Positions 4,272 through 37,093 of a stretch of 59,689 nt of DNA are shown one piece after another. The translations under genes were made by a program, and so were the position numbers. The first letter of the stretch is position 1; each line of letters begins with the position of its first letter. This DNA comes from an uncultured Candidatus Saccharibacteria bacterium (GTDB taxonomy: Bacteria; Patescibacteriota; Minisyncoccia; Phycocordibacterales; Phycocordibacteraceae), in the NCBI GenBank assembly GCA_964546795.1, contig CAZJKG010000001.1, positions 1 through 59,689 of the forward strand, written 5' to 3'. The notes below the pieces were generated by a model. That model made no database searches and was not told the origin of the DNA. It worked only from the letters and a program-made list of their open reading frames with translations.

Positions 4272-4272
4272 C

Positions 4273-7141: not shown

Positions 7142-7618
7142 TTAATTAAGCATCCAAATACTAAAATTCAAGTATCCGGCAAAACTTACCCAGAGAATAT
7201 ATGGCATAAGAAGCCATGCGGCCGGTTTAGAGATTTTCGCAAAGGCAATAATCGTGGCGAGAATGGCGAGCCAGAGGAATACGATCTCAATAAGCGCACC
7301 GCCCGGGCTGTGCAGACCAAAAAAGATAATTGACCAAAGGGTATTGAGCACTAGCTGTCCGAGAAATATGCCGAGAGCAATTTTTACATCCCTACGATCC
7401 AGTCCTTTCTTCCAGACAAGAAAGGCCGCGATGCCCATAAGCGCAAACAATGTCGTCCAGACCGGTCCGAACACCCACGCCGGGGGATTGATAGCAGGCT
7501 TCACGATCCCTGAGTACCAGCCGGCAATGGACGGCGTGGTAAACACTGAACTGATAATGCCAGCAAGTTCGGAGACTATGATGGCGATGATAAGTTTGAA
7601 GGCGTTATTAATTTTCAT
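7142..7618 (-). CDS. tspO: TspO/MBR family tryptophan-rich sensory protein
   Basis: 158 aa, five hydrophobic helices, Trp-rich signature WYSGIVKPAINPPAWVFGPVWTTLF. Confidence 0.85.
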   Translation of the reverse strand: MKINNAFKLIIAIIVSELAGIISSVFTTPSIAGWYSGIVKPAINPPAWVFGPVWTTLFALMGIAAFLVWKKGLDRRDVKIALGIFLGQLVLNTLWSIIFFGLHSPGGALIEIVFLWLAILATIIAFAKISKPAAWLLMPYILWVSFAGYLNFSIWMLN

Positions 7619-7736
7619 AACTTCATTTTACTCCTTCCATTCTCTTATTCATAATTCATCAACTGGTTACTCCCTATGATGGGTTTGGAATTGGGAGCAA
7701 GAGAATAAAAAAGAACCTCTGGTGTGGGCAAAGATT

Positions 7737-7765
7737 TTGATGTCATCCGGATAAAGAGGTATAAT
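7737..7765 (+). promoter_or_regulatory. sigma70-type promoter of the methyltransferase gene with flanking operator-like repeats
   Basis: TTGATG (7737-7742), 17 nt, TATAAT (7760-7765). The 10-mer TGATGTCATC occurs at 7738-7747 (over the -35) and 7765-7774 (just after the -10). Confidence 0.55.
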
Positions 7766-7779
7766 GATGTCATCGACCT

Positions 7780-9093
7780 ATGCCACCAATCGCCAGCTCA
7801 ATACAAAAGCAGTTCAAAATATTAGAACCTCGTGAGGAGTGGTCTTTTAGAGATGCAGGTCGTTCTCAGACCACCGCCTTCTCTCATGACTACCACCGTT
7901 ACCCAGCAAAATTTATTCCACAGATCGTCCGCAAACTGATCGAAGATTACGCGCCAAGCACTGAGCAAATAGTCTGTGATCCATTCGGTGGATGTGGGAC
8001 GACTCTGGTGGAAGCAAAACTGCTAGGACATCCCAGCATCGGTTTTGATATCAACCCTGTTGCGAAATTGATAACCCAAACAAAGACTACCGCGATCAAG
8101 CCACGCACCCTTACAAATCACAAGCAGAAATTTTTAGAGTACTACGATATGGCACCTAAGATTTCCTACGAGCACCATCCTCGCATTACCTACTGGTTCG
8201 ACGAGGAAACAATCACCGAATTAGACAGAATTTATTTTGCGGTAAAGAAAATAGAGAATCATAATGTCCGCAGGTTTTTCCTCTGTGCCTTTTCACACAA
8301 CCTTAAAAACTGCTCGCGCTGGCTGATGAAAAGCATCAAGCCAACCATCGACAAGGATAAAATCATACCCGTCCCAAAACAGTCTTTCCTCCGGCATCTT
8401 GATTCAATGATTAGAAAGAACGAGTTGTTCTATACGAAGCTGGCTGAATCCGGACGCACTAAGGTCTCCGCTAAGATGTATCGCCGAGATTCCACTAAGA
8501 CATTCTCGATGGAGTCTGAATCGGTAGATTTAATCGTTACGTCTCCACCCTACGTCACCTCATATGAATACGCTGATCTTCACCAGCTGACGCTTCTATG
8601 GTTCGGGGATGATCCTAAGCATTTCAAAAAATGGCATCATTTTAGTAATGGATTTATAGACTTTCGTCGAACTTTTATCGGCACAAGTTCAAAAGCTAAA
8701 AAAACTGGTGACTTCAACAGCACCATAGGAAAAAAGATTGTCGACGATCTTATGCTAGTTGAACGTCCACTCGCTATCGATGTCGCAAATTATTTTCTGG
8801 ATATGCAAAAAGTATTCGCCGAAACTCACCGAATCCTTAAGAAGGGTGGAAAGGCCTGCGTGATTATTGGCAATACCAATCTTCGAGGCGTAGAAATTCA
8901 AAACGCGCAGGTTGCGGCAGAACAGATGCAGGCCGCTGGTTTTACCAAAGTAGATTTTATAAAACGCGAAATCCCTAATAAGATGATTACTCCGTGGCGC
9001 GACACTGAGAGCGGCAAATTTACAGGCATGGACAATCCGTCAAAAACTCGTGCTTACGAATTTGAGTATGTAGTTGTGATGGAAAAGAATTAA
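7780..9093 (+). CDS. DNA methyltransferase, N4/N6 (amino-MTase) family, motif I before motif IV
   Basis: 437 aa. AdoMet-binding VCDPFGGCGTTLVEAKLLG near the N-terminus and catalytic LIVTSPPYVTSYEY about 190 aa later. An SPPY tetrapeptide is more typical of N4-cytosine enzymes (inference). Confidence 0.85.
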   Translation: MPPIASSIQKQFKILEPREEWSFRDAGRSQTTAFSHDYHRYPAKFIPQIVRKLIEDYAPSTEQIVCDPFGGCGTTLVEAKLLGHPSIGFDINPVAKLITQTKTTAIKPRTLTNHKQKFLEYYDMAPKISYEHHPRITYWFDEETITELDRIYFAVKKIENHNVRRFFLCAFSHNLKNCSRWLMKSIKPTIDKDKIIPVPKQSFLRHLDSMIRKNELFYTKLAESGRTKVSAKMYRRDSTKTFSMESESVDLIVTSPPYVTSYEYADLHQLTLLWFGDDPKHFKKWHHFSNGFIDFRRTFIGTSSKAKKTGDFNSTIGKKIVDDLMLVERPLAIDVANYFLDMQKVFAETHRILKKGGKACVIIGNTNLRGVEIQNAQVAAEQMQAAGFTKVDFIKREIPNKMITPWRDTESGKFTGMDNPSKTRAYEFEYVVVMEKN

Positions 9094-11612
9094 ACAATTT
9101 TCCTTATCATGCCAGGTAGGGCTTTCCCAATAGCACGCATAGCAGAACCGAGAATCAGGTCCTTATCAGGATCGTTTTTTAATTCAAAGTAAAGATACAG
9201 AGAATAAATATAGGTGTCAGCAATATATTTATTTTCCGCACTTCCAACCTTATCAAGGCCCACCATCTTTTTTAGGTCCTTCAAGGGTTTGGAATCCACA
9301 TTTAGATTAACTATCAATCCTTGCGTTCGAGAGGAGTCAACACTGGCCACGCTATGCTCATTCCATCCATGGGTTGGCCAATCTCTTTCGTAAACAGGGT
9401 TTCTTTTTGGTTCGTTAAGCTTCGAACTTTCTTCGGGAGATATGACCTCGATTGGTATAGAGATATCAAACTTATGATCACCGTCATTGTTAATCAGTAT
9501 TTTGGCATCTGGTATTTTTCCTAATTTTTCAGTGGCGGCATAAAAGGTGACTTCAAGAATGCCGTCATTTAAACGAAATTTCTTTAGCCGTAAATCGTCA
9601 CGATCTTCAAACTCAAATGACCCAGGATCAGCTTCCCGGGTAAAGTAGTCATTTGCAACATCCGTAGCAAAACTGAATTTTTTATTTGTTTTTGACGGAA
9701 TTCTTAACGTTTCCTTTAGTGGCTTAAAGTATGTTGGGAAATATGAACCTTCGTAAGGAGGCGTCTCGATTATTTTGAAAGTAACCGTTTGTTCAAATTT
9801 CTTTACTTTCTCGGAGTCTAGCAGAGTGAAAGTAATTTTATCTTGATCACCAACTTTGGCATTTTCTCTACAATCTACACGGAGGGAGACAATGCCCTTA
9901 TTCATACTGCGAACAACGACATCGAGGAGGGTTGAATCTTTCGACCAATCAATGTAATAGCGGTTCTTTTTTCTGGTAAAGAGTTTGTCTTCCGCGTCGG
10001 TCTTAAAAGATATAAGGGTATAGGAAGATTTATCGACCTCCTTGGGCTGGCTTCCTACAAGTTCAAACATCTTTGGATGTTCTTCGCCGACATACTTCTC
10101 TTTATCCTCGTCTTTCCCTTTCGGAATCTTAATTTCTTCACCGATACCGAGTAGCTCTTTTAGTTCAGGATCGTCAACAATTGCTCTCTCTATAAGCTTA
10201 TCAAGTTCCTTATTATCCTCATTAGAACTTGCCAAGCTTTTTTCTTGATATTCCCTATCCCATTTCTCGAAAATCTCATTTTCAAAGAATTTTTTTAGAC
10301 GATCTCTCAGGGTGTGATAATCTTCAGTGCGAGCTAATTCCTCTCTTCCAGAATGAAAGATGTTTGCTAGTTCGACTGGAATATCCGACATATCAATATA
10401 ACAGAGCAGATAGGGAGCTAGAGCAGGAAGTTGACAATCTGTTCGCACAAAAGATTCATTCTCATATCCTAGTGCCAAGCCATTTTCCAGATAGAATATT
10501 TTCTGATTTAGTTCTTTATAAGATTTTACTCCTTCGGCATCGCTTATATGCCTCAAGCGAATGCATCGAATATTACGAGTTCCTATCTCACCCAAACCCG
10601 CTGGAAGTGTGATGTCGTCATTGATAATGTTTTTATTATCCTCAATTCGTCTAAGCAAACCCGCAATTGTATATTTTGTATCTCCCTTCCACCCTCTCTT
10701 GTCTTGCAAAAAGATAGGGAGTGGAGGTTTCTGTAATTTCTGATCAAAATCAAAAGCTAGTGAATGGAATCCGAAAGTTATGTTTGATGGATTATCCAGA
10801 TAATAGTCGTACAGACGAATGAGACAGCCATCGATAAAATCAATTTCTAAACCATCAATTTTTATTGGATTATCATAAGGAAAAGAAAAAATGCCCTCAG
10901 TTATGTCGGTACAGTATTCGTAATAGGGAACCCTATTTTTATAACTACGTCTCACCAAAGTGAATCCCCAATCGTTCTTCTCATTTTTATCAGCAATACT
11001 TTCTGCGCGTCGGGATAGAACGAGTTGGTAGCATTTAGATTTGCCACCGGCGAAGCGTATGGCTGCTGATCCGCCTTGATGGTACTTACCAAAGACAAAA
11101 TTAATCTTCTCTTTTATACTCTCACTCAATCCAACGATAGTATCTTGGATTCTATTAGGAGTTTGCCCTTCTCCACGATCAATAATAGTAATTGTCGGCC
11201 TCTTTTTATCACCCTCAGCTAAAACGACTAAGTGTTGCCTTGCCCACGCGCTTCGGTTTTTATTTATCTCCTCCTCACTCCCGAAATATTTTGTAATTGC
11301 TTCAGATAGAGTTTTTGGTAATCGTGGATCACCACTACTAGGATGCACACCTTCCACTTCGTAGCATCGTCTCATTAACAATGCGTCCGTAGAATTTGTT
11401 ATTTTTTCAACCAAAGCATTACTTGAGCTTTTCATCTGCCCCTCAATCTGCGGAGCATTAAGTTCACGCCCACCATACGGCACCCATTTAGAGTTTTCGG
11501 GTCCAAAAAATGCTTCACTTTCGATCAAAGAGGCTATCTCTTCTGAAGAAACAGTACCGAGTAGTTTAAAAAATATTTCTTTGTTCAGCTTTTGATTCAT
11601 ATTTATTTTCAT
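9090..11612 (-). CDS. GHKL-superfamily (MORC/HATPase_c_3-like) ATPase, large uncharacterised C-terminal region
   Basis: 840 aa. N-box ALVEKITNSTDALL, G1 box ITIIDRGEGQT, G2-like GKYHQGGSAAIRF in the first 200 aa or so. I recognised no domain in the remaining 600 aa or so. Its stop codon overlaps the MTase stop (TTAA at 9090-9093). Confidence 0.75.
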   Translation of the reverse strand: MKINMNQKLNKEIFFKLLGTVSSEEIASLIESEAFFGPENSKWVPYGGRELNAPQIEGQMKSSSNALVEKITNSTDALLMRRCYEVEGVHPSSGDPRLPKTLSEAITKYFGSEEEINKNRSAWARQHLVVLAEGDKKRPTITIIDRGEGQTPNRIQDTIVGLSESIKEKINFVFGKYHQGGSAAIRFAGGKSKCYQLVLSRRAESIADKNEKNDWGFTLVRRSYKNRVPYYEYCTDITEGIFSFPYDNPIKIDGLEIDFIDGCLIRLYDYYLDNPSNITFGFHSLAFDFDQKLQKPPLPIFLQDKRGWKGDTKYTIAGLLRRIEDNKNIINDDITLPAGLGEIGTRNIRCIRLRHISDAEGVKSYKELNQKIFYLENGLALGYENESFVRTDCQLPALAPYLLCYIDMSDIPVELANIFHSGREELARTEDYHTLRDRLKKFFENEIFEKWDREYQEKSLASSNEDNKELDKLIERAIVDDPELKELLGIGEEIKIPKGKDEDKEKYVGEEHPKMFELVGSQPKEVDKSSYTLISFKTDAEDKLFTRKKNRYYIDWSKDSTLLDVVVRSMNKGIVSLRVDCRENAKVGDQDKITFTLLDSEKVKKFEQTVTFKIIETPPYEGSYFPTYFKPLKETLRIPSKTNKKFSFATDVANDYFTREADPGSFEFEDRDDLRLKKFRLNDGILEVTFYAATEKLGKIPDAKILINNDGDHKFDISIPIEVISPEESSKLNEPKRNPVYERDWPTHGWNEHSVASVDSSRTQGLIVNLNVDSKPLKDLKKMVGLDKVGSAENKYIADTYIYSLYLYFELKNDPDKDLILGSAMRAIGKALPGMIRKIV

Positions 11613-11637
11613 ATTTATGTTCTTGGAGAGGAGCTAT

Positions 11638-11868
11638 TTATAAGCGGAACTCTCGGTTTTTGGGGAAGTGGAATTTTGCCTTAACTTCCTTTAATTTACG
11701 TTCAATTTCATAAAATATTTTATCCACGTCCTCCTCGGTATATTGATAAGCTTGTCTATTTGCACAATTTCCAAGCACCTTAAGCCTTCGGAGAACAGTG
11801 TTCGTGCGAAGCGTGGCCAACCTTTTGAATCTTTCTTGAGGGGTCTCTTTTTTATTTGGCTTTTCCAT
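11638..11868 (-). CDS. small basic hypothetical protein, first gene of the GHKL operon
   Basis: 76-aa ORF ending 25 nt upstream of the GHKL ATPase start, same strand. Minus-strand TATAAT (11874-11879) lies 5 nt upstream of its ATG. Confidence 0.6.
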   Translation of the reverse strand: MEKPNKKETPQERFKRLATLRTNTVLRRLKVLGNCANRQAYQYTEEDVDKIFYEIERKLKEVKAKFHFPKNREFRL

Positions 11869-11937
11869 AATATATTATATTTATCACATCTAGTTTACAG
11901 ATGCAAGGGTGTTATGCCCTTTATAAGGGTAGTCTAA

Positions 11938-11949
11938 ATGAAAAGATAA
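11938..11949 (+). other. displaced original 5' end of mnmA at attL (ATG AAA AGA then element-derived TAA)
   Basis: Joining 11938-11946 to 16997 onward gives ATG AAA AGA AAG GTC TTC GTC GGG..., which translates to MKRKVFVGLSGGVDS, a canonical MnmA N-terminus. Confidence 0.6.
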
Positions 11950-12068
11950 GACGAGTCAATAAGATACACACCCATCCATCTATCGTAAGATAGGCAAAAG
12001 TGATAGAATAAAATCAACAGTTAAATAAGCGCCTCACGAGGCAACCTGAAAGGTATTCCGAGTCCAAG

Positions 12069-12119
12069 GGCTCGCGATCTACGTCACTTTTGTGATTACG
12101 GATCGCGAGCCTTTTGTTT
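12069..12119 (+). terminator. strong hairpin plus T-run just inside attL (insulating terminator or attenuator)
   Basis: GGCTCGCGATC-21 nt-GATCGCGAGCC followed by TTTTGTTT. No plus-strand ORF lies upstream of it inside the element. Confidence 0.45.
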
Positions 12120-12134
12120 AACTGGACAATAAAT

Positions 12135-12704
12135 ATGAAAAATAAGTATGAGAAATTGAGCTTTATTAAAGCTCTCATAAGCCAGCTGGATAATTTGTCC
12201 CGTGTACCGGCCAAGGTTTATTTTAATTATACTTCCGCAAGTTTTGATATTAATCAGCAAAAGGAAGTTTTAGCGGAGCTTAAAAAGAAAAAGTTGATAT
12301 CGAGCTACCGATGGAACGAGGACGATTTTATAATCACCAAGCCAAGCAGGAGAGGTCTTTTTGAATACTGGCTGAAGCTACATATAGAACCGGTCCCGGA
12401 ACAAAAGCCGATTGACACGAGAATAATTTTTAACGAGAAAACCGGCGACATCGTCCGGGCCGGAAAGGTGTGTCCGATCCCTATCAGCACAAACCAATAT
12501 TTTCTTTGCAAGGCTTTATTCGCTGTTCCTTTCGGCACGCCGGTAACGGAGATCGACATCATGGAAGCGGCCGATCTGGCGAGAAGGGAACCCAAGCGAA
12601 GCATACGCGACGCCAAAACGGCGGTGAATAAGAAAATAAAGGCCAAATTCGGCATAGACGAGTTTATATGCTGGAAAAACCAGCGGGCTTGGATCAGAAA
12701 ATAA
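12135..12704 (+). CDS. hypothetical protein with possible C-terminal winged-helix DNA-binding region
   Basis: 189 aa from ATG 12135 (MKNKYEKL...). The C-terminal segment TEIDIMEAADLARREPKRSIRDAKTAVNKKIK resembles wHTH regulators (weak). Confidence 0.6.
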   Translation: MKNKYEKLSFIKALISQLDNLSRVPAKVYFNYTSASFDINQQKEVLAELKKKKLISSYRWNEDDFIITKPSRRGLFEYWLKLHIEPVPEQKPIDTRIIFNEKTGDIVRAGKVCPIPISTNQYFLCKALFAVPFGTPVTEIDIMEAADLARREPKRSIRDAKTAVNKKIKAKFGIDEFICWKNQRAWIRK

Positions 12705-12748
12705 ACTGCGAGTCCGGGTGACTCGAAGGTGAATCGCGGGCGCGGGAG

Positions 12749-12777
12749 CAGACTGGAAGAAAACAGTCTGTTTTTTT
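12749..12777 (+). terminator. rho-independent terminator
   Basis: CAGACTG-GAAGAAAA-CAGTCTG followed by TTTTTTT. Confidence 0.6.
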
Positions 12778-12781
12778 ATTT

Positions 12782-12958
12782 ATGAGAATAAAAAGGTCGC
12801 CACAATTCAAAATCGAAACGATTTACCGGGAAGTGCCGGACAAGAAGGATCGTATCCGGCAACTTTGGGATTTATTGATATCCCTGCCGGAGCAGGAAGA
12901 TAAGAAAATAGAAAATAAGAATCCTTATGAAAATCAAAAAATCACAGCCAACGTATAA
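12782..12958 (+). CDS. possible 58-aa ORF (below the ORF-track cutoff)
   Basis: ATG 12782 to TAA 12956-12958 (MRIKRSPQFKIETIYREVPDKKDRIRQLWDLL...). It fills the gap between the terminator and the next gene and overlaps the 12927 start by 32 nt. Confidence 0.3.
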   Translation: MRIKRSPQFKIETIYREVPDKKDRIRQLWDLLISLPEQEDKKIENKNPYENQKITANV

Positions 12959-13181
12959 CACCACCGACTTCTATTTGAGTTGTTTTCTTCTAGCAAGAGG
13001 GATACAGCTCATAGGACTCAATCAAACCGATGATCCGGGTCGTCGGTCTTTTGTGTTTGTGGAATCGGAAATGCGATCCGTGCTCATGAACGAGTACAAC
13101 TTTGACGGAGAAGCGGAAATCAACGTGAGAGATTTTATATCGGCCATACGCAAACTCAAGACTCTCTTATACGAAAAATAA
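12927..13181 (+). CDS. DUF5659-like small protein
   Basis: 84 aa. TTDFYLSCFLLARGIQLIGL...RRSFVFVES matches my recollection of the DUF5659 pattern common in phage and CPR elements. Confidence 0.55.
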   Translation: MKIKKSQPTYNTTDFYLSCFLLARGIQLIGLNQTDDPGRRSFVFVESEMRSVLMNEYNFDGEAEINVRDFISAIRKLKTLLYEK

Positions 13182-13182
13182 T

Positions 13183-13953
13183 ATGGCCAACATCCCAAAC
13201 ACAACTCAAACGCCTAACATCATTTTCAACGGCTTGATGAAAGAGATGTCTGACACCGAGCTTCGTGTCGTGCTTATCGTTACCCGGGCCACACTCGGCT
13301 GGGTTTTGGATAGGGAGAAGGGAATGCGAAAAGAGGAGGATTGGATTTCACACTATCAGCTGAAGCAAAAGACCGGCCGTGAGTCCGGCGCCATATCTAA
13401 AGCCATTGACCGGTGTATCCAGAAAGGATGGATAGAAGCCAGAGACCACGGTGGCGAACTGTTGGATACCAAAGACAAGCGACGTGGCAAAAATATCTAC
13501 TACCGCTTGGGTCCAGCAATCCTTTTGAGAACATCTTCGGAAAGCGAAGATGTATATGTAACCTCTTCCAAAAGCGAACTTCATAAACCGAATTTCGCAA
13601 AGCAAAGTATACAAAAGGTAATCCCTACAAAACTAACTATACAAAAAACTATATTGCCGACTCTGGAGGATATCGAGATATCCATGACCTTAAAAGAGTT
13701 TGTTGATTGGTGCAGTAAGAGTAGTCAAAAGCACATTCGGATCATCGGTAACTGGGCAGACACCATAGAGCCAGATTTTAAGACCAAACAGCAGTGGGAG
13801 GCATTTCTGAAAAGAAATCTAAGAGCGGCCAAGAATCTTGAGCCATTCGAGGATAAACGACTGATCGAAGGATTCAAGAAAATCCAGGAAGCGGCAAAAC
13901 AGGGTTGGCTCAAGAAATACACACTGGAGACTCTCTTTAAATTCATCGTATGA
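13183..13953 (+). CDS. replication-initiator-like protein (phage replication protein O N-terminal-like wHTH)
   Basis: 256 aa. TQTPNIIFNGLMKEMSDTELRVVLIVTRATLGWVLDRE...ISHYQLKQKTGRESGAISKAIDRCIQKGWI follows the Rep_O N-terminal pattern. Confidence 0.6.
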   Translation: MANIPNTTQTPNIIFNGLMKEMSDTELRVVLIVTRATLGWVLDREKGMRKEEDWISHYQLKQKTGRESGAISKAIDRCIQKGWIEARDHGGELLDTKDKRRGKNIYYRLGPAILLRTSSESEDVYVTSSKSELHKPNFAKQSIQKVIPTKLTIQKTILPTLEDIEISMTLKEFVDWCSKSSQKHIRIIGNWADTIEPDFKTKQQWEAFLKRNLRAAKNLEPFEDKRLIEGFKKIQEAAKQGWLKKYTLETLFKFIV

Positions 13954-14438
13954 AATACAACCAACCGGCGGAAGCCACAAAAACCGAATACGATCTGAAT
14001 AATCCGGAGGAAAAGAAAACTATCAGGGACTTTGAAGTCCTGCTTGAGAATTTGAAAACCGTACCGCTCAAATATCCGCTCTGGGTTTATGGAGAACCGA
14101 AAGAGGTGATCCCTGCGTTCAAATTCGGCAAGCGAGAATTTCCGGAAAGTATAAACCCAAGACGTATTCGCAATGACATCGTCGGTCTCACCGATGCTGG
14201 TATCGTTCAACACCTGCTCGAGGTCAAAGCCATATCCCGTCGCCATGTGAAAAAAGAACATCCGAATTATGGCTGGGCGGTGGGTCCCGATCTGAAAGCA
14301 TACGAGGATTTTTATAAGAAACAGCGAGCCCTCGAGGAACTCAAAGATAAACGTGTGTACGCCGAGCAAAAAGACGAGGAATCTTTTGACGCGCTTATCG
14401 AAGGTCGTGAGGGGCTAATCAAATCAATGAAGCCATGA
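13950..14438 (+). CDS. hypothetical protein (element)
   Basis: 162-aa ORF, ATGA overlap with the upstream gene, same-strand operon. Confidence 0.6.
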   Translation: MKYNQPAEATKTEYDLNNPEEKKTIRDFEVLLENLKTVPLKYPLWVYGEPKEVIPAFKFGKREFPESINPRRIRNDIVGLTDAGIVQHLLEVKAISRRHVKKEHPNYGWAVGPDLKAYEDFYKKQRALEELKDKRVYAEQKDEESFDALIEGREGLIKSMKP

Positions 14439-14632
14439 ATAAATACAGCAAGGAAATGGAGAACGCCATAAATGTGCTCAAAAGGAATCCGGTCAAAGGG
14501 GCGGAAATAGTATTGTCCCTACTGAAAAGTAAAGATGACATGGTAAAGCTTGAAGCGGCCGCATTCATTCTTGATCGGGTCATGGGGAAGCCAAAGGCGA
14601 TGCCGAACAGGAGTAGAAGAAACTCTACTTAA
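14435..14632 (+). CDS. hypothetical protein (element)
   Basis: 65-aa ORF, ATGA overlap with the upstream gene. Confidence 0.5.
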   Translation: MNKYSKEMENAINVLKRNPVKGAEIVLSLLKSKDDMVKLEAAAFILDRVMGKPKAMPNRSRRNST

Positions 14633-14643
14633 CACAACTTTTT

Positions 14644-15219
14644 ATGGCCAAACTGAAACACATAACCAAATACCACGAACGAGCGCTCGAACTGAAATAT
14701 AAAGGGTATTCCTACCAAAATATCGCCGAGGACATCAATAGGAAATTTGAAAAAAGTAGAAAAGCCAAATTCACCGAGCAAAGCGTAAAAGATTGGTTCA
14801 AACAATCCGGAACATTGCAGGAAACCTATAGGCTCTACGCGCAGGAACTGGATATCATCCATCAAGAAACCGTGGACATAGTCCGGAAAGCCGGTGTGCG
14901 TGTTCGTGAGCAGAATTTTCGCTTGGCCAATGAGATGCTCGTAGCTCTTATGGGAAGTCAGAATGACGGCGTGAAGCTCGCGGCCATCAAGGAACTTTTA
15001 GATCGTGTAGAGGGTCATCCTAAAGACCGCATTGAGCTTAGCAAGATCAACTTTAAAGATATGTCACCGGGCGATCGATGGGAGTTTATTCCTTACGAGA
15101 TGCAACTTGCTCTGGCACGCAATCAATACCCCGATGCCAAGGCCGCGATCATAAAAAAGTGGCTTGCGGACGGAGAACCAGCTGTGGGCAACTCGAGCTT
15201 AGCGGATGAGCAAAATTAG
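14644..15219 (+). CDS. hypothetical HTH-like protein (element)
   Basis: 191 aa. N-terminal ERALELKYKGYSYQNIAEDINRKF resembles an HTH. It ends inside the 5' region of the recombinase ORF. Confidence 0.6.
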   Translation: MAKLKHITKYHERALELKYKGYSYQNIAEDINRKFEKSRKAKFTEQSVKDWFKQSGTLQETYRLYAQELDIIHQETVDIVRKAGVRVREQNFRLANEMLVALMGSQNDGVKLAAIKELLDRVEGHPKDRIELSKINFKDMSPGDRWEFIPYEMQLALARNQYPDAKAAIIKKWLADGEPAVGNSSLADEQN

Positions 15220-15259
15220 TATAGGGTGCTGTGTTGAGAACGAAGATGAGCATAAAAAT

Positions 15260-17980
15260 ATGAAATCAGTCCTTTACGCCCGGGTTTCAACCGAGGAACA
15301 AAAAAGCAATCAAACCATCGACACTCAAATTCATGGCATCGGTGGAATGTTGCAATATGCCATCAATCACAAATTGCCGGTCCCGGACGAGACAATGATG
15401 TTCATTGATGATGGCTTCAGCGGAGCGACACTGATACGTCCGGCTCTCACTGCTTTCCGTGAGTATTTGAAAACGCATGACGATGTCAGCTATTTTCTGG
15501 TTTATGACGCCGACCGAATCGGCCGAGACACGTATAACCAACTGATTATCCTTGAGGAGCTCAAAAAGAAAAACGTCACCATCCATTTTAAGACCGGCGA
15601 GCTCGGATCAACCCCGAACGATAAACTGCTATTCACCATCTTAAGCGCGTTCAGTGAATTCGAGAGAGCAAAAATAATGGAGCGAACCCAGCGCGGAATG
15701 AAAAGAAGAATAGAGTCCGGCAAATTTAATGGCGGACGTCCGCTTTTCGGATATCGATACAATTATGCGATCGGCAAACACGAGCTTGACGAAACCGAAG
15801 CTAAGGTAGTGAAGATGATTTATGACTGGTACACCGAGGACAAACTCAACATCAGACAAATCCAAGCCAAACTATTTGAGCTTAAAATCCCCACTAAATA
15901 TGACGCTCTGAAAAATAACGAAAAGAATCGCAAGATGAAAGGATTGAAAAAGTTTCCGCTGGGCTGGTGGAGCGAAGTGACAATACGAAACGTTCTGGCC
16001 AACGAAGCGTACACCGGTCGATGGTACTGCTGTAAAAATCAGACCATCAAATTGGACGTGGCGAATCTTCGGACGGGGAAGCCTAAAGTCAGACAAATCA
16101 AAAGAGCCAAAGAGGAATGGTTTCCGATAGAGATACCAAGGATCGTCTCCGATGAACAGCATAAGAAAGGACTCCTGCAAGCTAGAAAGAATTTGATGTT
16201 CGCCAAACGATGTACCAAGCAAACATATCTACTGCAAGGACTCATCCGATGCGGTAAAGACCATCTCAAGTATCGCGGTCATCAGGAAAAAAGTGGCGTC
16301 ATTTATTACTACTGCAAAAGCCGGATGAATAATAATCCGGTAGAGAATTGCCATAGTCCGTATCTGCGAGCGGATCAGATCGAGCCAATAGTTTGGAACA
16401 CGGTACAATCGATCTTGAAAAATCCGGAAGATGTTTTTAACACGTTCCGTGACGAATCCATACTGAACGAGGAACGAGCCAAAAGTATCGAAGGCCGATT
16501 AGATTATATATCCGGCGCGGTCAAAAAACTTGAGGTGGCCAAGAAACGAATCACCGAGGCGTTTAAAGCCGAAGTGATGACGCTTCCGGAATTGAGGAAA
16601 GAGAAAACTGATATCGAACTTAGCGAGGAGAAGCTTATTTCCGAGCGTGATGCTTTGATGATGAAGCTCAACGTTCAGCATGACGTGAGCGCAAAGATCG
16701 ATCTGTTTAAAGAAACCTGCTATAAGTTTTTGAGCAAAATAAACGATCCGAAAATAGTGACAGAACGTCTGAAAAAAGATATAATCAAACTCTTAATTGA
16801 TGAAGTGGTGATCGAAGGCGAGAGCGTCAAGATTTTTGCCACCATCCCTCTGCCGAATAAGATTCACGAACGGGAAATGGACAAAACTGACATTCCCGGT
16901 ACTTTTAATGCTGGGGCCACATTAGGCCCGGTGAACGAAACGAATATGACCAGAATTTGGAATAAACACAAACAAACAAATACCCCTCTTAAAAGAAAGG
17001 TCTTCGTCGGGTTGTCGGGAGGAGTGGACTCCGCGGTGTCGGCGGCACTTTTGAAGCAGGCGGGTGCATACGTAACGGGCGTATTCATCAAGGGTTGGTA
17101 TCCGCCCGGGATGCCCTGCTCATGGGCAGAGGAGCGCCGCGACGCGATGCGGGTTGCGGCGCGGCTTCAGATACCGTTCCGTACGCTTGACGCGAGCGTT
17201 GAATACAAAAAGGGAGTCATTGATTATCTCTTGGCCGAATATCGCGCCGGCCGCACGCCGAATCCTGATGTCATGTGCAATCGTGAAGTGAAGTTCGGTG
17301 CGTTCTCGCGCTATGCCATGGCACAGGGAGCCGACGCCATCGCGATGGGACATTATCGCTCGGGAGAGAATGATCAGAGTTATTTCCTCTGGGCGGTGCC
17401 CAAAGACATTCTGGCCGGAACGCTGTTTCCCGTGGGTTCCTATGAAAAGAAAAAAGTGCGCGAACTTGCAAAGCATTTTGATCTGCCGGTTGCGCAAAAA
17501 AAGGACAGCCAGGGTATTTGCTTTCTCGGCAACATTTCAGTTGAAGAATTCCTGCGCAGCGAATTTGATGTTCTGTCCGGCCGTGCACTTGACGAGCAGG
17601 GACGCGTCCTTGGCCAGCACGGAAGCGCTCTACTCTCCACTATCGGCGAGCGCGTTGCGCTCAAGGGTGCTCTTGAGAAAGGTCCGTGGTTCGTGCTCGC
17701 AAAAGATGTCGCCAAGAATGAGCTTATCGTGGGGAAGACGCGGCTTCCGCATTCCGCTCCCTCGCACCAAGAGATACCATTCACCGATGCTAATTGGTTT
17801 GACGTACCGGAGAATGTTACGGAAGCGCACTATCGCTATCGAGGTCCGCATGTACCGGGAAGCATCAGGGGAGATCGTTTCGTGAGTTCGGAACCGCTTC
17901 CGGATATTCCCGCTCCCGGCCAATCGCTTGTTTTCTATCATTCTGGCGAACTTGTCGGTGGTGGTATTATTGCTTCATGA
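15260..17980 (+). CDS. chimeric open reading frame: large serine recombinase (about 579 aa) running without a stop into MnmA
   Basis: Resolvase catalytic motif VLYARVSTEEQ, recombinase domain (GGRPLFGYRY), Cys-rich zinc-ribbon segment, coiled coil. There is no in-frame stop before attR, so the frame continues into KRKVFVGLSGGVDSAV (MnmA P-loop). Confidence 0.8.
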   Translation: MKSVLYARVSTEEQKSNQTIDTQIHGIGGMLQYAINHKLPVPDETMMFIDDGFSGATLIRPALTAFREYLKTHDDVSYFLVYDADRIGRDTYNQLIILEELKKKNVTIHFKTGELGSTPNDKLLFTILSAFSEFERAKIMERTQRGMKRRIESGKFNGGRPLFGYRYNYAIGKHELDETEAKVVKMIYDWYTEDKLNIRQIQAKLFELKIPTKYDALKNNEKNRKMKGLKKFPLGWWSEVTIRNVLANEAYTGRWYCCKNQTIKLDVANLRTGKPKVRQIKRAKEEWFPIEIPRIVSDEQHKKGLLQARKNLMFAKRCTKQTYLLQGLIRCGKDHLKYRGHQEKSGVIYYYCKSRMNNNPVENCHSPYLRADQIEPIVWNTVQSILKNPEDVFNTFRDESILNEERAKSIEGRLDYISGAVKKLEVAKKRITEAFKAEVMTLPELRKEKTDIELSEEKLISERDALMMKLNVQHDVSAKIDLFKETCYKFLSKINDPKIVTERLKKDIIKLLIDEVVIEGESVKIFATIPLPNKIHEREMDKTDIPGTFNAGATLGPVNETNMTRIWNKHKQTNTPLKRKVFVGLSGGVDSAVSAALLKQAGAYVTGVFIKGWYPPGMPCSWAEERRDAMRVAARLQIPFRTLDASVEYKKGVIDYLLAEYRAGRTPNPDVMCNREVKFGAFSRYAMAQGADAIAMGHYRSGENDQSYFLWAVPKDILAGTLFPVGSYEKKKVRELAKHFDLPVAQKKDSQGICFLGNISVEEFLRSEFDVLSGRALDEQGRVLGQHGSALLSTIGERVALKGALEKGPWFVLAKDVAKNELIVGKTRLPHSAPSHQEIPFTDANWFDVPENVTEAHYRYRGPHVPGSIRGDRFVSSEPLPDIPAPGQSLVFYHSGELVGGGIIAS
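16946..17980 (+). CDS. mnmA: tRNA-specific 2-thiouridylase MnmA (host gene, N-terminus now supplied by the element)
   Basis: PP-loop SGGVDSAV, then NPDVMCN, GHY and CFLG motifs. Internal ATG 16946 (MTRIWNKHKQTNTPLKRKVFVGLSGG) is the first candidate start in the integrated state. A sharp AT-to-GC shift occurs at about 16,995. Confidence 0.8.
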   Translation: MTRIWNKHKQTNTPLKRKVFVGLSGGVDSAVSAALLKQAGAYVTGVFIKGWYPPGMPCSWAEERRDAMRVAARLQIPFRTLDASVEYKKGVIDYLLAEYRAGRTPNPDVMCNREVKFGAFSRYAMAQGADAIAMGHYRSGENDQSYFLWAVPKDILAGTLFPVGSYEKKKVRELAKHFDLPVAQKKDSQGICFLGNISVEEFLRSEFDVLSGRALDEQGRVLGQHGSALLSTIGERVALKGALEKGPWFVLAKDVAKNELIVGKTRLPHSAPSHQEIPFTDANWFDVPENVTEAHYRYRGPHVPGSIRGDRFVSSEPLPDIPAPGQSLVFYHSGELVGGGIIAS

Positions 17981-33493: not shown

Positions 33494-33865
33494 ATGACAC
33501 TCAACACGACACCAAAGGAGATGATTCACACGATTGACGCGACCGACCGCACGCTCGGCCGCGTGGCGAGCGAGGCGGCGCATGCGCTCCTCGGGAAGAG
33601 GAGCGTCCACTTCACCAAGAATCAAGCATTGCCGGTCACGGTCACCATCATGAACGCCGACAAGCTTCACCTCCCGGCGCGCCGCACGGAAGGCAAGGTC
33701 TACCTGCGCTACACCGGCTATCCGGGAGGTCAGCGCGAGATGACCATGGCCGAGATGGTCACGAAAAAGGGCGTCGCGGAGGTCCTCAAAAAGACGATTG
33801 ACGGCATGATACCGCGCAACAAGCTCCGCAAGTTGCGCATGAAGAACCTCATCATCAACGCCTAA
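33494..33865 (+). CDS. rplM: 50S ribosomal protein L13
   Basis: ATG 33494 (the track start 33488 is a TTG). IDATDRTLGRVASEAAHALLGK...YLRYTGYPGG. Confidence 0.93.
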   Translation: MTLNTTPKEMIHTIDATDRTLGRVASEAAHALLGKRSVHFTKNQALPVTVTIMNADKLHLPARRTEGKVYLRYTGYPGGQREMTMAEMVTKKGVAEVLKKTIDGMIPRNKLRKLRMKNLIINA

Positions 33866-33866
33866 T

Positions 33867-34262
33867 ATGCCAACCAAATACATCATCGCTGTCGGACGCC
33901 GCAAGACCGCCATCGCGACAGTGCGCATGACCGCCGCTCCGAAGGGCAGTGTCATGGTCAACGGCAAGACCCCGAAAGAATATTTTAAGACAAATGAACG
34001 CGCAAAGATCGCGGAAGAAGCACTCGGCACTGCGCAGAGCGCGGAGCATTATGCAGTCGTCGCGCACGTAGAGGGCGGTGGTGTTGCCGCCCAGGCAGAC
34101 GCTGTGCGGCACGCCATCTCCCGCGCCATCATCAAGGCAGAGCCGAAGACGCGCACAGTGCTCAAGGCCGCTAAGTTCCTCAAACGCGACCCGCGCGCCA
34201 AAGAGCGCAAGAAACCAGGCCTCAAGAAAGCAAGGAAGGCTCCCCAGTGGTCTAAACGGTAG
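33867..34262 (+). CDS. rpsI: 30S ribosomal protein S9
   Basis: AVGRRKTAIATVRM...GGGVAAQADAVRHAISRAI...KKARKAPQWSKR. Confidence 0.95.
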   Translation: MPTKYIIAVGRRKTAIATVRMTAAPKGSVMVNGKTPKEYFKTNERAKIAEEALGTAQSAEHYAVVAHVEGGGVAAQADAVRHAISRAIIKAEPKTRTVLKAAKFLKRDPRAKERKKPGLKKARKAPQWSKR

Positions 34263-34271
34263 TAATACAAA

Positions 34272-34304
34272 AAGAACGCCCGATAATCTCGGGCGTTCTT
34301 TTTC
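34272..34304 (+). terminator. rho-independent terminator of rplM-rpsI
   Basis: GAACGCCCG-ATAATCT-CGGGCGTTC followed by TTTTT. Confidence 0.8.
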
Positions 34305-34401
34305 ATCATCCTTCCGCAGTCCAAACACATGAAATGGCATTTTGCATATGCGGCCACCGGTAGGTGAGCAGCCGCGATGCCATTTCTTGTGAGGGACAAG
34401 C

Positions 34402-34428
34402 AAAGCCCCTCAGTGGTCTAAGCGTTAA
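34402..34428 (+). repeat. second copy of the rpsI 3' end (codes KAPQWSKR*), att-like
   Basis: AAAGCCCCTCAGTGGTCTAAGCGTTAA versus native AAGGCTCCCCAGTGGTCTAAACGGTAG. All 6 differences are synonymous. Followed by its own hairpin and T-run (about 34440-34468). Confidence 0.75.
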
Positions 34429-34485
34429 TCCACTGCATGAAAAACTCTCCCATACGGAGGGTTTTTCATATGTCATGATGAACGA

Positions 34486-34716
34486 GTGGAAATCCATTTC
34501 AGTGATCATGCGTTATTGAAGTTGGGTCAGCGGAAAATTTCGATCTCGTTAGTGCGTAAGGTGGTTTTATCACCCGATATTCGCAGATCAGAGAACTTCC
34601 CAAAAGAAGAGTGGTTTAAGCGGTTTAGAATTTGGCATCTCAAGGTCATTCTTGTCCGAGAGCCCAGACGAATCATTGTCATTACTGCCCATTGGGTAAA
34701 GAAGGTTCCGTTATGA
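34486..34716 (+). CDS. DUF4258-family toxin-like protein
   Basis: 76 aa, GTG start. IHFSDHALLKLGQRKISISLVRKVV fits the DUF4258 N-terminal pattern. Paired with a DUF2283 gene. Confidence 0.65.
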   Translation: MEIHFSDHALLKLGQRKISISLVRKVVLSPDIRRSENFPKEEWFKRFRIWHLKVILVREPRRIIVITAHWVKKVPL

Positions 34717-34729
34717 TATACTGTCGACA

Positions 34730-34954
34730 ATGAAAATTACATATGATAAAAAGGTTGATGCGTTGAATGTCTCGATCCGTCCCGGGGCAGTCGCTAAAAC
34801 TGTAGAAGTCGCTCCTGAAGTGCTTCTTGATATCGACAAGAAAGGCCGTCTCCTTAATCTGGAAATTCTTGGTGCCCGAGAAAAAGTGGGGGCTCGAAAC
34901 TTCAGCACTGTGAATATCGGGGGCACGTTGGTTCCGATGTCTTCACTGGCTTAA
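34730..34954 (+). CDS. DUF2283-family antitoxin-like protein
   Basis: 74 aa. MKITYDKKVDALNVSI...LLDIDKKGRLLNLEILGA is the typical DUF2283 pattern. Confidence 0.75.
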   Translation: MKITYDKKVDALNVSIRPGAVAKTVEVAPEVLLDIDKKGRLLNLEILGAREKVGARNFSTVNIGGTLVPMSSLA

Positions 34955-34957
34955 ATA

Positions 34958-35022
34958 CCAAAGAGCGCAAGAAACCAGGCCTTAAGAAAGCAAGAAAAGC
35001 TCCTCAGTGGTCGAAGCGTTAG
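34958..35022 (+). repeat. third copy of the rpsI 3' end (65 nt, codes KERKKPGLKKARKAPQWSKR*)
   Basis: 58/65 identical to 34198-34262. All 7 differences are third-position synonymous. A decayed fourth remnant (AAGCGTTAATC, 35051-35061) matches copy 2. Confidence 0.85.
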
Positions 35023-35093
35023 CGGAAATCCCGAGTATTTTGAGGGGAGCAAGCGTTAATCTAAAAGTCGTTTTTTATCACTTCATTTTAATT

Positions 35094-36170
35094 TCAGGAT
35101 TCAATTAGAGGAATTATGTTTTTGTTGCGAGCGAGAATACATGTGGCATTAACACTACCTCCATCTTGAAAAGAACGCTTATATTCTTTTTCTTTCCCGA
35201 TTTCTAAATATTTTTCAGACATTTTCACTGCAGCCACAACTTTTCGGACAAAATCTATATTTTCGCCCCAACCCATAAAATAAATACTTTCTACACCGGA
35301 TGGTAAGTGTTCTGTACGATACACGTAACTACTAATCTCCTCGGTATTTCTTTTATCCCTCGCTGCTACTAGTATAAAAGAAACCTTTATGTTGTTATCC
35401 CGGAAATCCATATTACTAATCGATCTGCGCTCTCGGCTGATGAATTGTAAAAGGAATCCAATAAATTTCTCCACTTCTTGAGACAGTCCTCTTATATGTG
35501 GGCGAAATGATGCCTTTGCTCCAAGAAAAACCATTTCTTGAATAAAGACAGTAAAGAAAACACCGCCTTCGTCCATCTGTTCAAGCTTATTGAACAAGGT
35601 CTGTATATTTGGATGTTTTGCAATAAGTGGTCTATAAAATTTCTCTTCCAGCTCCTTTAATCCTTCCTTTCCTCCATTCATCAGAATATTTTTTGCGGTA
35701 TAAAGACGAATAGCTTCCTGTTGAAGACGATTTAAAGATGGATCGATCCTCGAATATAAGTGTTGGCTATAGAAAACTGCGACGTTCGCTAAATTTTCTC
35801 CGTGATTCTCTCTTTTCTGAAGATATAGTACGAGAGTATGGTCTCTTATAAATGCTTCACGTGTCGTGGTTCTAACAAGGACTATTTTAACTTGATTGGC
35901 GTCGAGTCCATCTATCTTGCTTAGAACATTTTCGATACCCTTGCCGACTTTGCCCTCGATATGGTTAACAACGTAATAACGCTCGGCAAAAACACCAAAG
36001 AAATAGGATAGAACTGACCAGACCTGAGCGAGAACAAGTTTGACGTTGGCGGGATACTGAACCCAAATCCACCAAAGAATCAGTGCTATAACAACTGCTG
36101 ACCCGAGACCCGTGGTAAGACCACCTGCGAATCCTCGGGCAGTGGCTTCTGCAATTTCAGGACTAATCAT
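35094..36170 (-). CDS. membrane-anchored hypothetical protein (N-terminal TM, soluble domain of about 290 aa), very AT-rich
   Basis: 358-aa ORF. GFAGGLTTGLGSAVVIALILWWIWV is hydrophobic; I recognised no motif in the remainder. Its start overlaps the upstream 81-aa gene by 8 nt. Confidence 0.7.
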   Translation of the reverse strand: MISPEIAEATARGFAGGLTTGLGSAVVIALILWWIWVQYPANVKLVLAQVWSVLSYFFGVFAERYYVVNHIEGKVGKGIENVLSKIDGLDANQVKIVLVRTTTREAFIRDHTLVLYLQKRENHGENLANVAVFYSQHLYSRIDPSLNRLQQEAIRLYTAKNILMNGGKEGLKELEEKFYRPLIAKHPNIQTLFNKLEQMDEGGVFFTVFIQEMVFLGAKASFRPHIRGLSQEVEKFIGFLLQFISRERRSISNMDFRDNNIKVSFILVAARDKRNTEEISSYVYRTEHLPSGVESIYFMGWGENIDFVRKVVAAVKMSEKYLEIGKEKEYKRSFQDGGSVNATCILARNKNIIPLIES

Positions 36171-36408
36171 GGTCCTTTCTAGTAATTTTTTCTAATTTTG
36201 CACGGGCAGTGTCGTTGTCTGCAACAAATCTGATTTCTTTCCCATCTGAAAATATGCTGAGTAGATTATTCTTACTTATTATGACATTTGAGAAAATACA
36301 ATGAATGTGCCCATTCTCAAAATCATTCTTAAAGCCCAGATCTTCAATTAATTTTGATAGGTCTTTGTCGTATACTGCTTTAATTTCCTGTGGTTGACTC
36401 ATTCCCAT
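36163..36408 (-). CDS. small hypothetical protein, translationally coupled to 35094-36170
   Basis: 81-aa ORF. Same strand and composition as the downstream gene. Confidence 0.6.
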   Translation of the reverse strand: MGMSQPQEIKAVYDKDLSKLIEDLGFKNDFENGHIHCIFSNVIISKNNLLSIFSDGKEIRFVADNDTARAKLEKITRKDHD

Positions 36409-36484
36409 ATTTTACTCTTGTATTAATATCAGTAAAGAGAGTTTTCATTTTGACTTCAACAAGATATTCTGGCATAGTGGGGAG

Positions 36485-37093
36485 ATGGCTATAACTTTTG
36501 GAAAAAGTTCGCCCGACTCCGCCGAGGAGGCGGAGTTTAGGGATGAAGAGGAAGTGAAAATTGTCGAAGACCCTGAAGTTGCTGAAGGGTCTGAAGATCC
36601 CGAGGCAGCCGAGGGAAAGAAAGTCGCGAAGATGCGCGAGGAGTTGAGCGCGTGCCGGAAGGATAAGCAGGAATATATGGACGGCTGGCAGAGGGCCAAG
36701 GCGGACTATGTGAATCTACTCAAGCGATTTGAGGTGGAAATCAAGACCGCCAAGGTCGCAGGAGTGGTGAAGGCAGTAGAGACGCTTCTGCCGGCATTTG
36801 ACGCCCTGGAGCGCTCCAAGGAGCACCTGCCTGCCGGCAGGCAGGTGGTAAATTCCGAAGGATTCCTCGCCATCGCCAAGCAGCTAGAGAGTGCCTTCGC
36901 CTCGCTCGGCCTCCAAGAGCTTGGGAAGGGCGGCGAAAAGTTTGATCCGGCTTATCATGAGGCATTGGGACGGGATGTGGCAGAATCCATTGAAACCGAC
37001 GATACTATCACCACGGTATTAGAAAAAGGATGGAAGATAGGCGACAATGTCATTCGTCCGGCGAAGGTCCGTGTCGCGCACTTTGCAAAATAA
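36485..37093 (+). CDS. grpE: nucleotide exchange factor GrpE
   Basis: 202 aa. Coiled-coil N-terminus, FDPAYHEAL and VLEKGWKIGDNVIRPAKVRV motifs. Confidence 0.9.
   Translation: MAITFGKSSPDSAEEAEFRDEEEVKIVEDPEVAEGSEDPEAAEGKKVAKMREELSACRKDKQEYMDGWQRAKADYVNLLKRFEVEIKTAKVAGVVKAVETLLPAFDALERSKEHLPAGRQVVNSEGFLAIAKQLESAFASLGLQELGKGGEKFDPAYHEALGRDVAESIETDDTITTVLEKGWKIGDNVIRPAKVRVAHFAK
36824..36847. repeat. perfect 24-bp palindrome CACCTGCCTGCCGGCAGGCAGGTG inside grpE (20-bp core shared with alaS)
   Basis: The core at 36826-36845 is identical to 27486-27505. Same codon phase, encoding LPAGRQ. Confidence 0.9.

Follow-up and report, generated by a model that had tools for sequence, protein, structure and literature searches.

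Synonymous copies of the rpsI 3' end and a conserved 166-nt module at the variable rpsI-grpE junction of an uncultivated patescibacterium

Why should the last codons of an essential ribosomal protein gene recur, rewritten, in the DNA behind it? The question is raised by rpsI, the gene for ribosomal protein S9, in a 59,689-nt stretch of DNA (contig CAZJKG010000001.1, hereafter the window) from an uncultivated groundwater bacterium of the Patescibacteria, a metagenome contig of Kaiserbacteria/Paceibacteria-like type. Here rpsI closes the series infA-rpsM-rpsK-rpsD-rpoA-rplQ-rplM-rpsI and is followed, after a 2.2-kb interval, by grpE-dnaK-dnaJ. We compared the locus with about 100 related Kaiserbacteria/Paceibacteria loci, referred to by L numbers; the closest relatives by RpsI are all metagenome-assembled genomes from this group. 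We consider it likely that the rpsI-grpE junction is an insertion hot spot, where modules entering the last codons of rpsI bring along a synonymous tail and a terminator and displace the previous tail. The repeats, their purely synonymous divergence, the conservation of the module, its fixed junctions, an empty site and a variable occupancy are all directly observed.

The rpsI tail is found in four forms, T1 to T4 (Table 1), of which T1 is the functional one. A repeat search returned a 65-nt direct repeat of 89% identity (34198-34262 and 34958-35022, T1 and T3) and a three-copy 31-nt family (34231-34261, 34397-34427 and 34991-35021). This agrees with a preliminary description of the window, which had listed repeats of the rpsI end at 34958-35022 and 34402-34428; the latter, T2, is best defined as 34398-34428. 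The description had also claimed that the copies diverge by synonymous changes only, and this is borne out. Within the 65-nt repeat, T1 and T3 differ at seven positions, all seven being third-position and synonymous, while T1 and T2 show six differences over the last eight codons and the stop, again all synonymous. Random substitutions rarely match this. Over 66 nt of T1/T3, which take in one more codon 5' of the repeat and one replacement, equally few amino-acid changes arose in about 1e-4 of 20,000 trials, and for T1/T2 in 0 of 20,000. In five other lineages the tail pairs differ at 5-10 of 27-30 nt with zero or one amino-acid change; no trial in 20,000 was as good for L102, L013, L089 and L093, and the fraction was 8e-3 for L115. 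A six-frame amino-acid scan of 83 related loci (threshold at least 7 of 9 residues) revealed extra S9 tails only downstream of rpsI and on the same strand, in six lineages. The tail-copy pattern is far beyond chance. A template/variable repeat pair like that of a diversity-generating retroelement was rejected, since adenines are not specifically affected and a reverse transcriptase is missing.

T4, which the description had placed at 35051-35061 as a decayed remnant, is real but short. Its 12-mer AGCAAGCGTTAA (35048-35059) is the exact native tail end of L101 and matches L119 at 11 of 12 positions. As a decayed copy of a whole module, the stretch behind T3 shows a marginal resemblance, equalled by 3 of 588 genomic controls, and this candidate was dropped; in front of T4 there may be the right end of an older module that has decayed.

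To decide which tail is the newcomer, the DNA around T1 and T2 has to be compared between lineages. Four more lineages share the 134-nt segment that separates the T1 stop from T2, with the second tail again 117-118 nt from an invariant 19-mer, CCTTCCGCAGTCCAAACAC. Altogether, a module is present at the same codon position in six lineages: the window, L102/103, L093, L089/098, L013/086 and, in interrupted form, L016/L105. In a codon-by-codon comparison of six carriers with 22 non-carriers, the haplotype specific to carriers has a sharp start, at base 3 of a gcA codon (34232), which places the insertion between bases 2 and 3 of this Ala codon, ten codons before the stop. From there on, carriers read gca-agg-aag-gca-ccc-caa-tgg-tct-aaa-cgN and non-carriers gcc-cgc-aaR-gcc-ccg-cag-tgg-agc/tcg-aaR-cgY. 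The fraction of identical codons in the tail is 0.30 between carriers and non-carriers and 0.55 among the native tails of non-carriers, and the differences between the two groups include codon-family changes (Ser TCT/AGC, Arg AGG/CGC). On the right, the module always ends in GGGAC, followed by the native tail. T2 and its terminator are collinear with the native end of module-free relatives (L102 vs L119; L013 vs L009 and L017), whereas the similarity of T1 to these relatives stops at the stop codon. The inserted unit is therefore 34232-34397, 166 nt, and T2 is the displaced tail, as in gene-end replacement of the icd/e14 type: T1 moves with the module, and T2 with its terminator is the native end. 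The replacement tail proposed in the description thus holds, and so does its view that the displaced tail is left downstream. The segment between tails 1 and 2 is not a leftover spacer, being a module conserved in six lineages. It supplies the last 10 codons and the stop of rpsI, so that S9 is full length despite a junction 31 nt before the stop, with the C-terminus ...KAPQWSKR.

Behind its recoded tail the module consists of a terminator, the 19-mer and a multi-stem hairpin whose 3' end is GTGAGGGAC. The module ends can be written as the patterns GCA AGR AAG GCA NNN NAA TGG TCT AAA CGN TAR (left, T1-type) and ...ATGCCATTTCTKGTGAGGGAC (right). Terminators of their own had been ascribed to copies 1 and 2, and both are indeed followed by perfect or near-perfect inverted repeats and then T runs. 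Terminator 1 is bidirectional; its compensatory and G-U changes suit the + strand only. From the stop codon to GGGAC the module is 80-92% identical between lineages, compared with 70-76% for the rpsI bodies (82% for the window vs L102), and its identity does not follow host distance. Its presence is patchy. Relatives with 95%, 93% and 91% RpsI identity to the window lack it (L119, L104, L101, L111), and relatives with 74-76% carry it; the carriers stand at 91% (L102/L103), 76% (L013/L086) and 74% (L016/L105-110). The module is therefore gained or lost as a precise unit.

Could this unit instead be a vertically inherited functional RNA or 3'-UTR (untranslated region) element of the rpsI operon, with T2 in its 3' part and a patchiness due to repeated loss? 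It is strongly conserved, and its place and orientation are constant. In the RNAalifold consensus, two pairs change in a compensatory way (70:129, AU to CG; 97:106, AU to GC), G-U pairs occur on the + strand only, and the 19-mer pairs with part of T2; the hairpin folds with a z-score of -9.1. Yet this 19-mer:T2 helix is broken in the window, where TCT stands for AGC, and T2 varies synonymously like a coding tail and keeps its stop codon, neither of which RNA pairing would require. The module lies directly behind a strong terminator with no promoter-like site within. A search of Rfam 15, in which 33800-36600 was scanned at E up to 10, gave terminator-like noise and no family match; the best hit scored 24 bits against a gathering score of 60, on the terminator alone. 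Also against it are the absence of the module at 91-95% RpsI identity together with its presence at 74-76%, and a module identity that does not follow host distance. We regard a functional RNA as distinctly unlikely.

Other identities of the hairpin were considered. A small open reading frame (ORF) within it (minus strand, MASRL...VWTAEG) was rejected, since substitutions are mostly non-synonymous and stem changes compensatory. A covariance model of the hairpin, run on the window and on about 1 Mb of related loci, matched only at rpsI; the module is therefore single-copy and tied to rpsI. Integron attC sites carry complementary R''/R' cores (RYYYAAC ... GTTRRRY) and come with intI and attI. 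By reading, no complementary R''/R' boxes were found at the base of the hairpin, and the window has no IntI-like gene. Nor does the module resemble an IS200/IS605 or TnpB/IscB element, as its two hairpins are unrelated and it is single-copy, occurring only at rpsI. No transposase or TnpB was found among the Pfam-scanned ORFs of the window or the Pfam families on record for 23.9-44.3 kb, a scan that left aside several small ORFs and the rest of the genome. The 19-mer itself reads as the native tail minus 3 nt, CCG CAG T[GG T]CC AAA C, and could be what is left of a still older tail, or else a recognition sequence.

An origin without foreign DNA would be by local duplication, by unequal crossing-over or by gene conversion inside a single genome. 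Over their first 34 nt, T1 and T3 differ at a single base, and this segment could stem from a recent local duplication. The same process fails to explain T1 and T2, which differ by codon-family changes (Ser TCT vs AGC, Arg AGG vs CGC) and at up to 10 of 30 positions, or why T1 with its terminator is near-identical in six distant lineages when T2 with its terminator is lineage-specific and native. Moreover, the cargo between the tails is variable and of different composition, and an empty site exists in L119. This explanation is largely refuted, and we consider it extremely improbable.

Although they differ at 8-10 nucleotides, the T1 and T2 of each carrier code for identical lineage-specific residues (KAKQ in L013, KAPK in L089). 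Selection has therefore acted on both tails at the protein level, which fits a presence/absence polymorphism of long standing where now one tail and now the other is functional. The locus is a clear case from nature in which selection has held two differing copies of a coding end synonymous.

Such a module might also spread by ordinary homologous recombination after DNA uptake, the left crossover falling in rpsI and the right one in the tail or the terminator, and no site-specific enzyme being required. In line with this, carriers agree more closely with one another than non-carriers do at codons -21 to -12 upstream of the junction (identical-codon fraction 0.80 vs 0.52), and the excess fades further upstream as expected of hitch-hiking. 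The same uniformity could also reflect a preferred left half-site of the target. Against homologous exchange, the right junction is sharp to the base with lineage-specific DNA beyond it, and codons -16, -15 and -11 are polymorphic among carriers within the supposedly co-transferred tract. Homologous exchange would also explain spread between lineages, but neither the first insertion nor the recoded tail. We hold it to be unlikely.

In keeping with the hot spot that we favour, the interval is empty in some relatives and differently filled in others. In the closest relative, L119 (RpsI 95% identical), the site is empty: 43 nt lie between rpsI and grpE, comprising the native tail (..tgg agc aag cgt tag), a terminator and the grpE promoter TTGACT-17-CATAGT. 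Ten different occupancies were found among relatives with 76-95% RpsI identity. L101, like L004 and L009, holds a DUF4258/DUF2283 pair and a 79-aa gene; L102 the module, T2, a cyclase, a peptidase and then a toxin-antitoxin pair; L086 the module, T2, about 2 kb and then a toxin-antitoxin pair; L104 two ORFans and a toxin-antitoxin pair; and L114 five ORFans. L115-118 contain a toxin-antitoxin pair, a DUF5678/aspartyl-protease pair, a LUD-domain gene and a GerE-type regulator. In L111 two ORFans lie behind a T1-type tail in the absence of the module. A hot spot, as the description had proposed, is thus supported by both empty and variable states, L119, L101, L102, L104, L111, L114, L115 and L086 all being different. 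An invariant junction or a plain tandem duplication would have spoken against it, and neither was encountered. The series T1-module-T2-toxin-antitoxin cassette-T3-T4 has the make-up of an accretion array, with units flanked by attachment sites (att), devoid of recombination and transfer genes, and arranged in tandem.

Two of these intervals deserve a closer look. The L111 tail (420-446; also in L113) is module-type, gcg agg aag gca ccc caa tgg agt aaa cgt taa, and has no terminator-hairpin module behind it, its place being taken by the two ORFans of 93 and 199 aa. The recoded tail may therefore form the left end of other cargo, too. In L115 (5922-6742), the DUF5678 small protein and a retropepsin-like aspartyl protease directly follow the second rpsI tail, as a further two-gene module of the interval.

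Between T2 and T3 the window encodes a DUF4258 and a DUF2283 protein, adjacent small genes that both score above the gathering score of their Pfam family, as is expected of type II toxin-antitoxin systems. The DUF4258 protein shares 71-72% amino-acid identity with the homologues of L102 and L104, and DUF4258 has been placed in the RelE/ParE superfamily (PMC11980606). Judged by these family assignments, the two form a putative toxin-antitoxin pair. In L115-118 such a cassette begins 8 nt past the rpsI stop, and a second tail, aac gcc ccg cag tgg tcg aag cgt taa, follows 9 nt past the DUF2283 stop with five third-position differences from the functional tail. It mirrors T3 of the window, which lies 3 nt behind DUF2283. 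The description had seen the pair as trapped between tails 2 and 3. The genes and the bracketing are real and recur in this second lineage; the pair is nevertheless a recurrent resident of the interval, present in eight lineages and bracketed by tails in only two.

How would such a locus be built? DNA modules would enter within the last rpsI codons. Each would have, at its left end, a synonymous tail to replace the old one and a terminator of its own, which keeps S9 intact, and the previous tail would be pushed downstream as an untranslatable copy. The newest insert would be the gene-less 166-nt module (34232-34397), and next outward would come T2, terminator 2 and the DUF4258/DUF2283 cassette. 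T3 and T4 would be tails from earlier events, T4 being the original native end. A fragment of a serine-recombinase island without integrase, beside the grpE promoter, would represent an independent event. Since the site encodes no recombinase and no recombinase-bearing element turned up, we infer the enzyme and the mechanism: insertion and loss would be carried out by a recombinase acting in trans and encoded elsewhere, with the hairpin, the 19-mer and GTGAGGGAC as possible recognition sequences, and the module as a minimal, att-only element. It may have circulated for long within the clade, and its tail would therefore follow the clade-specific S9 residues.

Several observations weigh against this account. 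No recombinase domain was detected in the ORFs at 34263-36408, where the description, too, had noted that no integrase remains, or in ten related rpsI-grpE intervals. The one recombinase that the window encodes, of the large serine type, is located at a different site (15206, mnmA), and its junction there has no similarity to the rpsI tail region. No element combining a recombinase with an rpsI tail turned up in the related loci, in metagenome hits or in five pattern scans of viral contigs (exact and degenerate), a limited search space. The site-specific integration by integrase-bearing elements that the description had proposed is therefore not supported in that form. The viral-contig scans had no hit for an rpsI tail or for the module, and phage and plasmid collections gave no match to the region. 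Compared by eye, T1 and T2 share no identical core of at least 6 nt conserved across lineages, the longest identical run being 11 nt in the window and 5-6 nt in L013, L089, L093 and L102. The left boundaries of the duplicated tail vary between events (-65, -31 and about -27 nt). Finally, in six lineages the toxin-antitoxin cassette lies behind rpsI without a second tail.

A typical tyrosine recombinase needs an identical core, and a serine recombinase a 2-nt crossover. The missing core argues against a classical tyrosine integrase and is compatible with a serine recombinase, the type found on islands of this group. On inspection, the rpsI tail has no dif-like dyad symmetry that would point to Xer recombination. 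The single joint seen in assembled contigs of the source runs, 34250 to 36467, was rejected as a trace of excision, since it derives from a different, about 85%-identical strain.

A bolder version of the insertion model would see the 166-nt unit as a minimal selfish 'tail-swap' element on an essential ribosomal gene, equipped with ten maximally recoded codons, a terminator and a recognition hairpin. The hairpin and the 31-nt native tail might then serve as the substrate of a trans-acting recombinase, or as a scaffold-plus-guide RNA that steers a nuclease or a recombinase towards rpsI alleles without the module, as in homing. If so, recoding would keep S9 functional while removing homology with, and targeting of, the native tail behind the hairpin; the model would also account for two tails that both remain coding and match the lineage-specific residues of S9. 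We put this forward as a speculation that is quite improbable.

Three parallels can be drawn from the literature. Streptococcal ICEs (integrative and conjugative elements) and IMEs (integrative and mobilizable elements), for instance IMESag-rpsI and IME_Sag2603_rpsI, integrate in the rpsI 3' end by means of tyrosine integrases (PMC4701971, PMC5704250). They share with the present locus the target gene and its end, the preservation of the gene and toxin-antitoxin genes among the cargo. However, they are at least about 9 kb long, have a tyrosine integrase and a relaxase of their own, and occur in Firmicutes, whereas our inserts measure 0.17-1.4 kb, lack a recombinase and a conserved identical core, and reside in a patescibacterial host. 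Of the hallmarks of ICEs and IMEs, insertion at the rpsI 3' end with an intact frame was found, and an own integrase was not. In the icd gene of E. coli, according to an account of the e14/phage 21 work (Hill, Gray and Brody 1989, via PMC13626634), the element supplies an alternative 3' end and leaves an icdC pseudo-end. As related there, the replacement end is mostly synonymous, the displaced end lies behind the element, and excision of e14 yields a chimeric functional gene; e14 is nonetheless a 15-kb prophage with an integrase. In our case the replacement end spans 10-22 codons, the unit of 166 nt is gene-less, and several displaced ends are stacked.

Stacking is known from the ssrA gene of Dehalococcoides, where genomic islands lie in tandem with stacked repeats (PMC3146451), and from cis-mobilizable elements (CIMEs), which form by site-specific accretion (reviewed in PMC5704250). 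These systems likewise display serial 3'-end direct repeats downstream of the gene, integrase-less islands between them and variation between strains. The Dehalococcoides repeats, in contrast, are near-identical 20-bp pieces of an RNA gene, and many islands there still have a serine integrase, while the repeats at rpsI are recoded protein-coding ends. A related autonomous element at the same att site, typical of CIMEs, was found neither in the genome loci nor in metagenome hits or viral contigs, all of them a limited search space. The locus works like a combination of these three systems and is a member of none: it lacks an integrase, a known autonomous relative and a core identical in all lineages.

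The pdif modules of Acinetobacter plasmids are small integrase-less cassettes, often toxin-antitoxin pairs, bounded by XerC/D sites. By analogy, our inserts appear similar in their small size, toxin-antitoxin pairs, sites of about 28-31 nt and a recombinase presumably encoded elsewhere. They differ in that dif-like dyad symmetry is missing and the sites are the coding end of an essential gene.

Mobile elements in the 3' ends of essential genes, spare gene ends and stacking were thus already known. What is new is the phenomenon in Patescibacteria (Candidate Phyla Radiation, CPR), uncultivated bacteria with tiny genomes and poorly known mobile elements, and its limiting case, a gene-less unit made of a spare gene end and about 100 nt of conserved structured DNA or RNA. 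This unit is kept more faithfully than the adjoining ribosomal gene and is gained and lost precisely. Its short conserved sequence offers a handle for seeking the recombinase and the rules of site choice. If the enzyme were found, the enzyme-module pair could insert DNA compactly at a defined, conserved site.

Table 1. Features of the rpsI-grpE region of the window.
Feature	Position	Strand	Basis or remark
rpsI, ribosomal protein S9, 131 aa	33867..34262	+	Pfam Ribosomal_S9, E=6.6e-39
T1, functional rpsI tail, copy 1 of 65-nt repeat	34198..34262	+	direct-repeat search
Inserted 166-nt tail-terminator-hairpin module (E-hp)	34232..34397	+	conserved unit, six lineages
Recoded module tail	34232-34262	+	codon scan
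Terminator 1, 15-bp perfect stem between A run and T run	34269..34303	+	inverted repeat and fold; moves with module
Invariant 19-mer CCTTCCGCAGTCCAAACAC	34310-34328	+	identical across module carriers
Multi-stem hairpin GUCC / CACAUGAAAUGGCAU / GCGGC / CACC-GGUA-GGUG ... GGAC	34319..34397	+	consensus fold
T2, displaced tail, last 10 codons + TAA (..SKAPQWSKR-stop), not translatable alone	34398..34428	+	repeat, collinearity
Terminator 2, behind T2	34437..34469	+	inverted repeat and fold
DUF4258 protein, putative toxin of RelE/ParE superfamily, 76 aa	34486..34716	+	PF14076, 25.9 bits vs cut-off 25
DUF2283 protein, putative antitoxin partner, 74 aa	34730..34954	+	PF10049, E=5.8e-14, 52.4 bits vs 23
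T3, older displaced 65-nt tail, 3 nt past DUF2283 stop	34958..35022	+	direct-repeat search
T4 remnant, TGAGGGG + AGCAAGCGTTAA + TCT	35041..35063	+	last four native-type tail codons, AGC Ser codon
AT-rich inserted fragment	35082..36458	-	imperfect 15-nt direct-repeat bounds, GC 0.32-0.47
358-aa membrane-anchored ORF	35094-36170	-	in AT-rich fragment
81-aa ORF	36163-36408	-	in AT-rich fragment
Native grpE promoter TTGACT-17-CATAGT	36450-36478	+	directly behind rpsI terminator in empty-site L119
grpE	36485-37093	+	with promoter (36450..37093), fixed right border of variable interval

The rest of the interval, at 35.1-36.4 kb, was described as an AT-rich operon starting right after the last tail remnant. 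Its low GC (0.32-0.47) and location are as stated; we read it, from its homologues, as a separate insertion outside the tail series, probably a truncated fragment of a serine-recombinase island beside the grpE promoter. The fragment is bracketed by an imperfect 15-nt direct repeat (35082-35096, TTCATTTTAATTTCA; 36444-36458, TTCATTTTGACTTCA), the right copy of which contains the grpE -35 hexamer; many such repeats occur by chance in the region, and position alone makes this one suggestive. A supposed remnant of a DUF2283 3' end upstream of grpE was rejected, the sequence being the native grpE promoter as in L119. The 358-aa and 81-aa proteins have no match in Pfam, PADLOC, PHROG or NCBIfam, the phage and plasmid collections gave none to the 358-aa protein, and the family comprises only 12 proteins, all from Paceibacterota. 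In L120-123 a homologous pair is arranged head-to-head with the gene of a large serine recombinase of 517 aa, which overlaps tRNA-Glu(CTC) at its 3' end. An N6/N4 DNA methylase and a ResIII helicase come next (L120 2042-5090; also L121-L123), the whole forming an island at tRNA-Glu in other Paceibacterota. The pair in the window is without a recombinase. Just upstream of this tRNA-Glu (about L120 1660-2025), a 37-nt palindromic sequence, ATTCTCACATTCTTAAGAAWGTGAGAGTATGT, lies on both sides of a 96-aa gene.

A reading of the interrupted module of L016/L105-110 as a full-length element with cargo was rejected: the left half of the module is present, and an IS256-family insertion sequence (NCBIfam NF048019, E=6e-86) follows in the 5' arm of the hairpin. 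All 24 contigs of this organism break at the IS256-family insertion, so the insertion sequence is probably multi-copy. The element, a zinc-binding variant of the family, lies at 10472-11403 in L105 and is also present in L016, L087, L090, L091, L097 and L106-L110.

Elsewhere in the window, a 924-aa ORF (15206-17980, + strand) consists of a large serine recombinase fused in frame to MnmA, with Resolvase, Recombinase and Zn_ribbon_recom domains at residues 22-400 and tRNA 2-thiouridylase domains at residues 598-844. Positions 1-17000 have a GC of 0.37-0.46, against 0.52-0.60 in the core, and encode a DNA methylase, an 840-aa ORFan and ABC/MacB/HlyD genes. The region has the look of an island, longer than 17 kb, that has integrated at the mnmA 5' end and whose left end lies beyond the window. 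The chaperone operon contains a second variable spot: the gap between dnaK and dnaJ holds a single 319-aa ORF in the window, and four to five small genes, including a weak ParE-toxin match, in the 91% relative from the same sample (L101 9932-11126).

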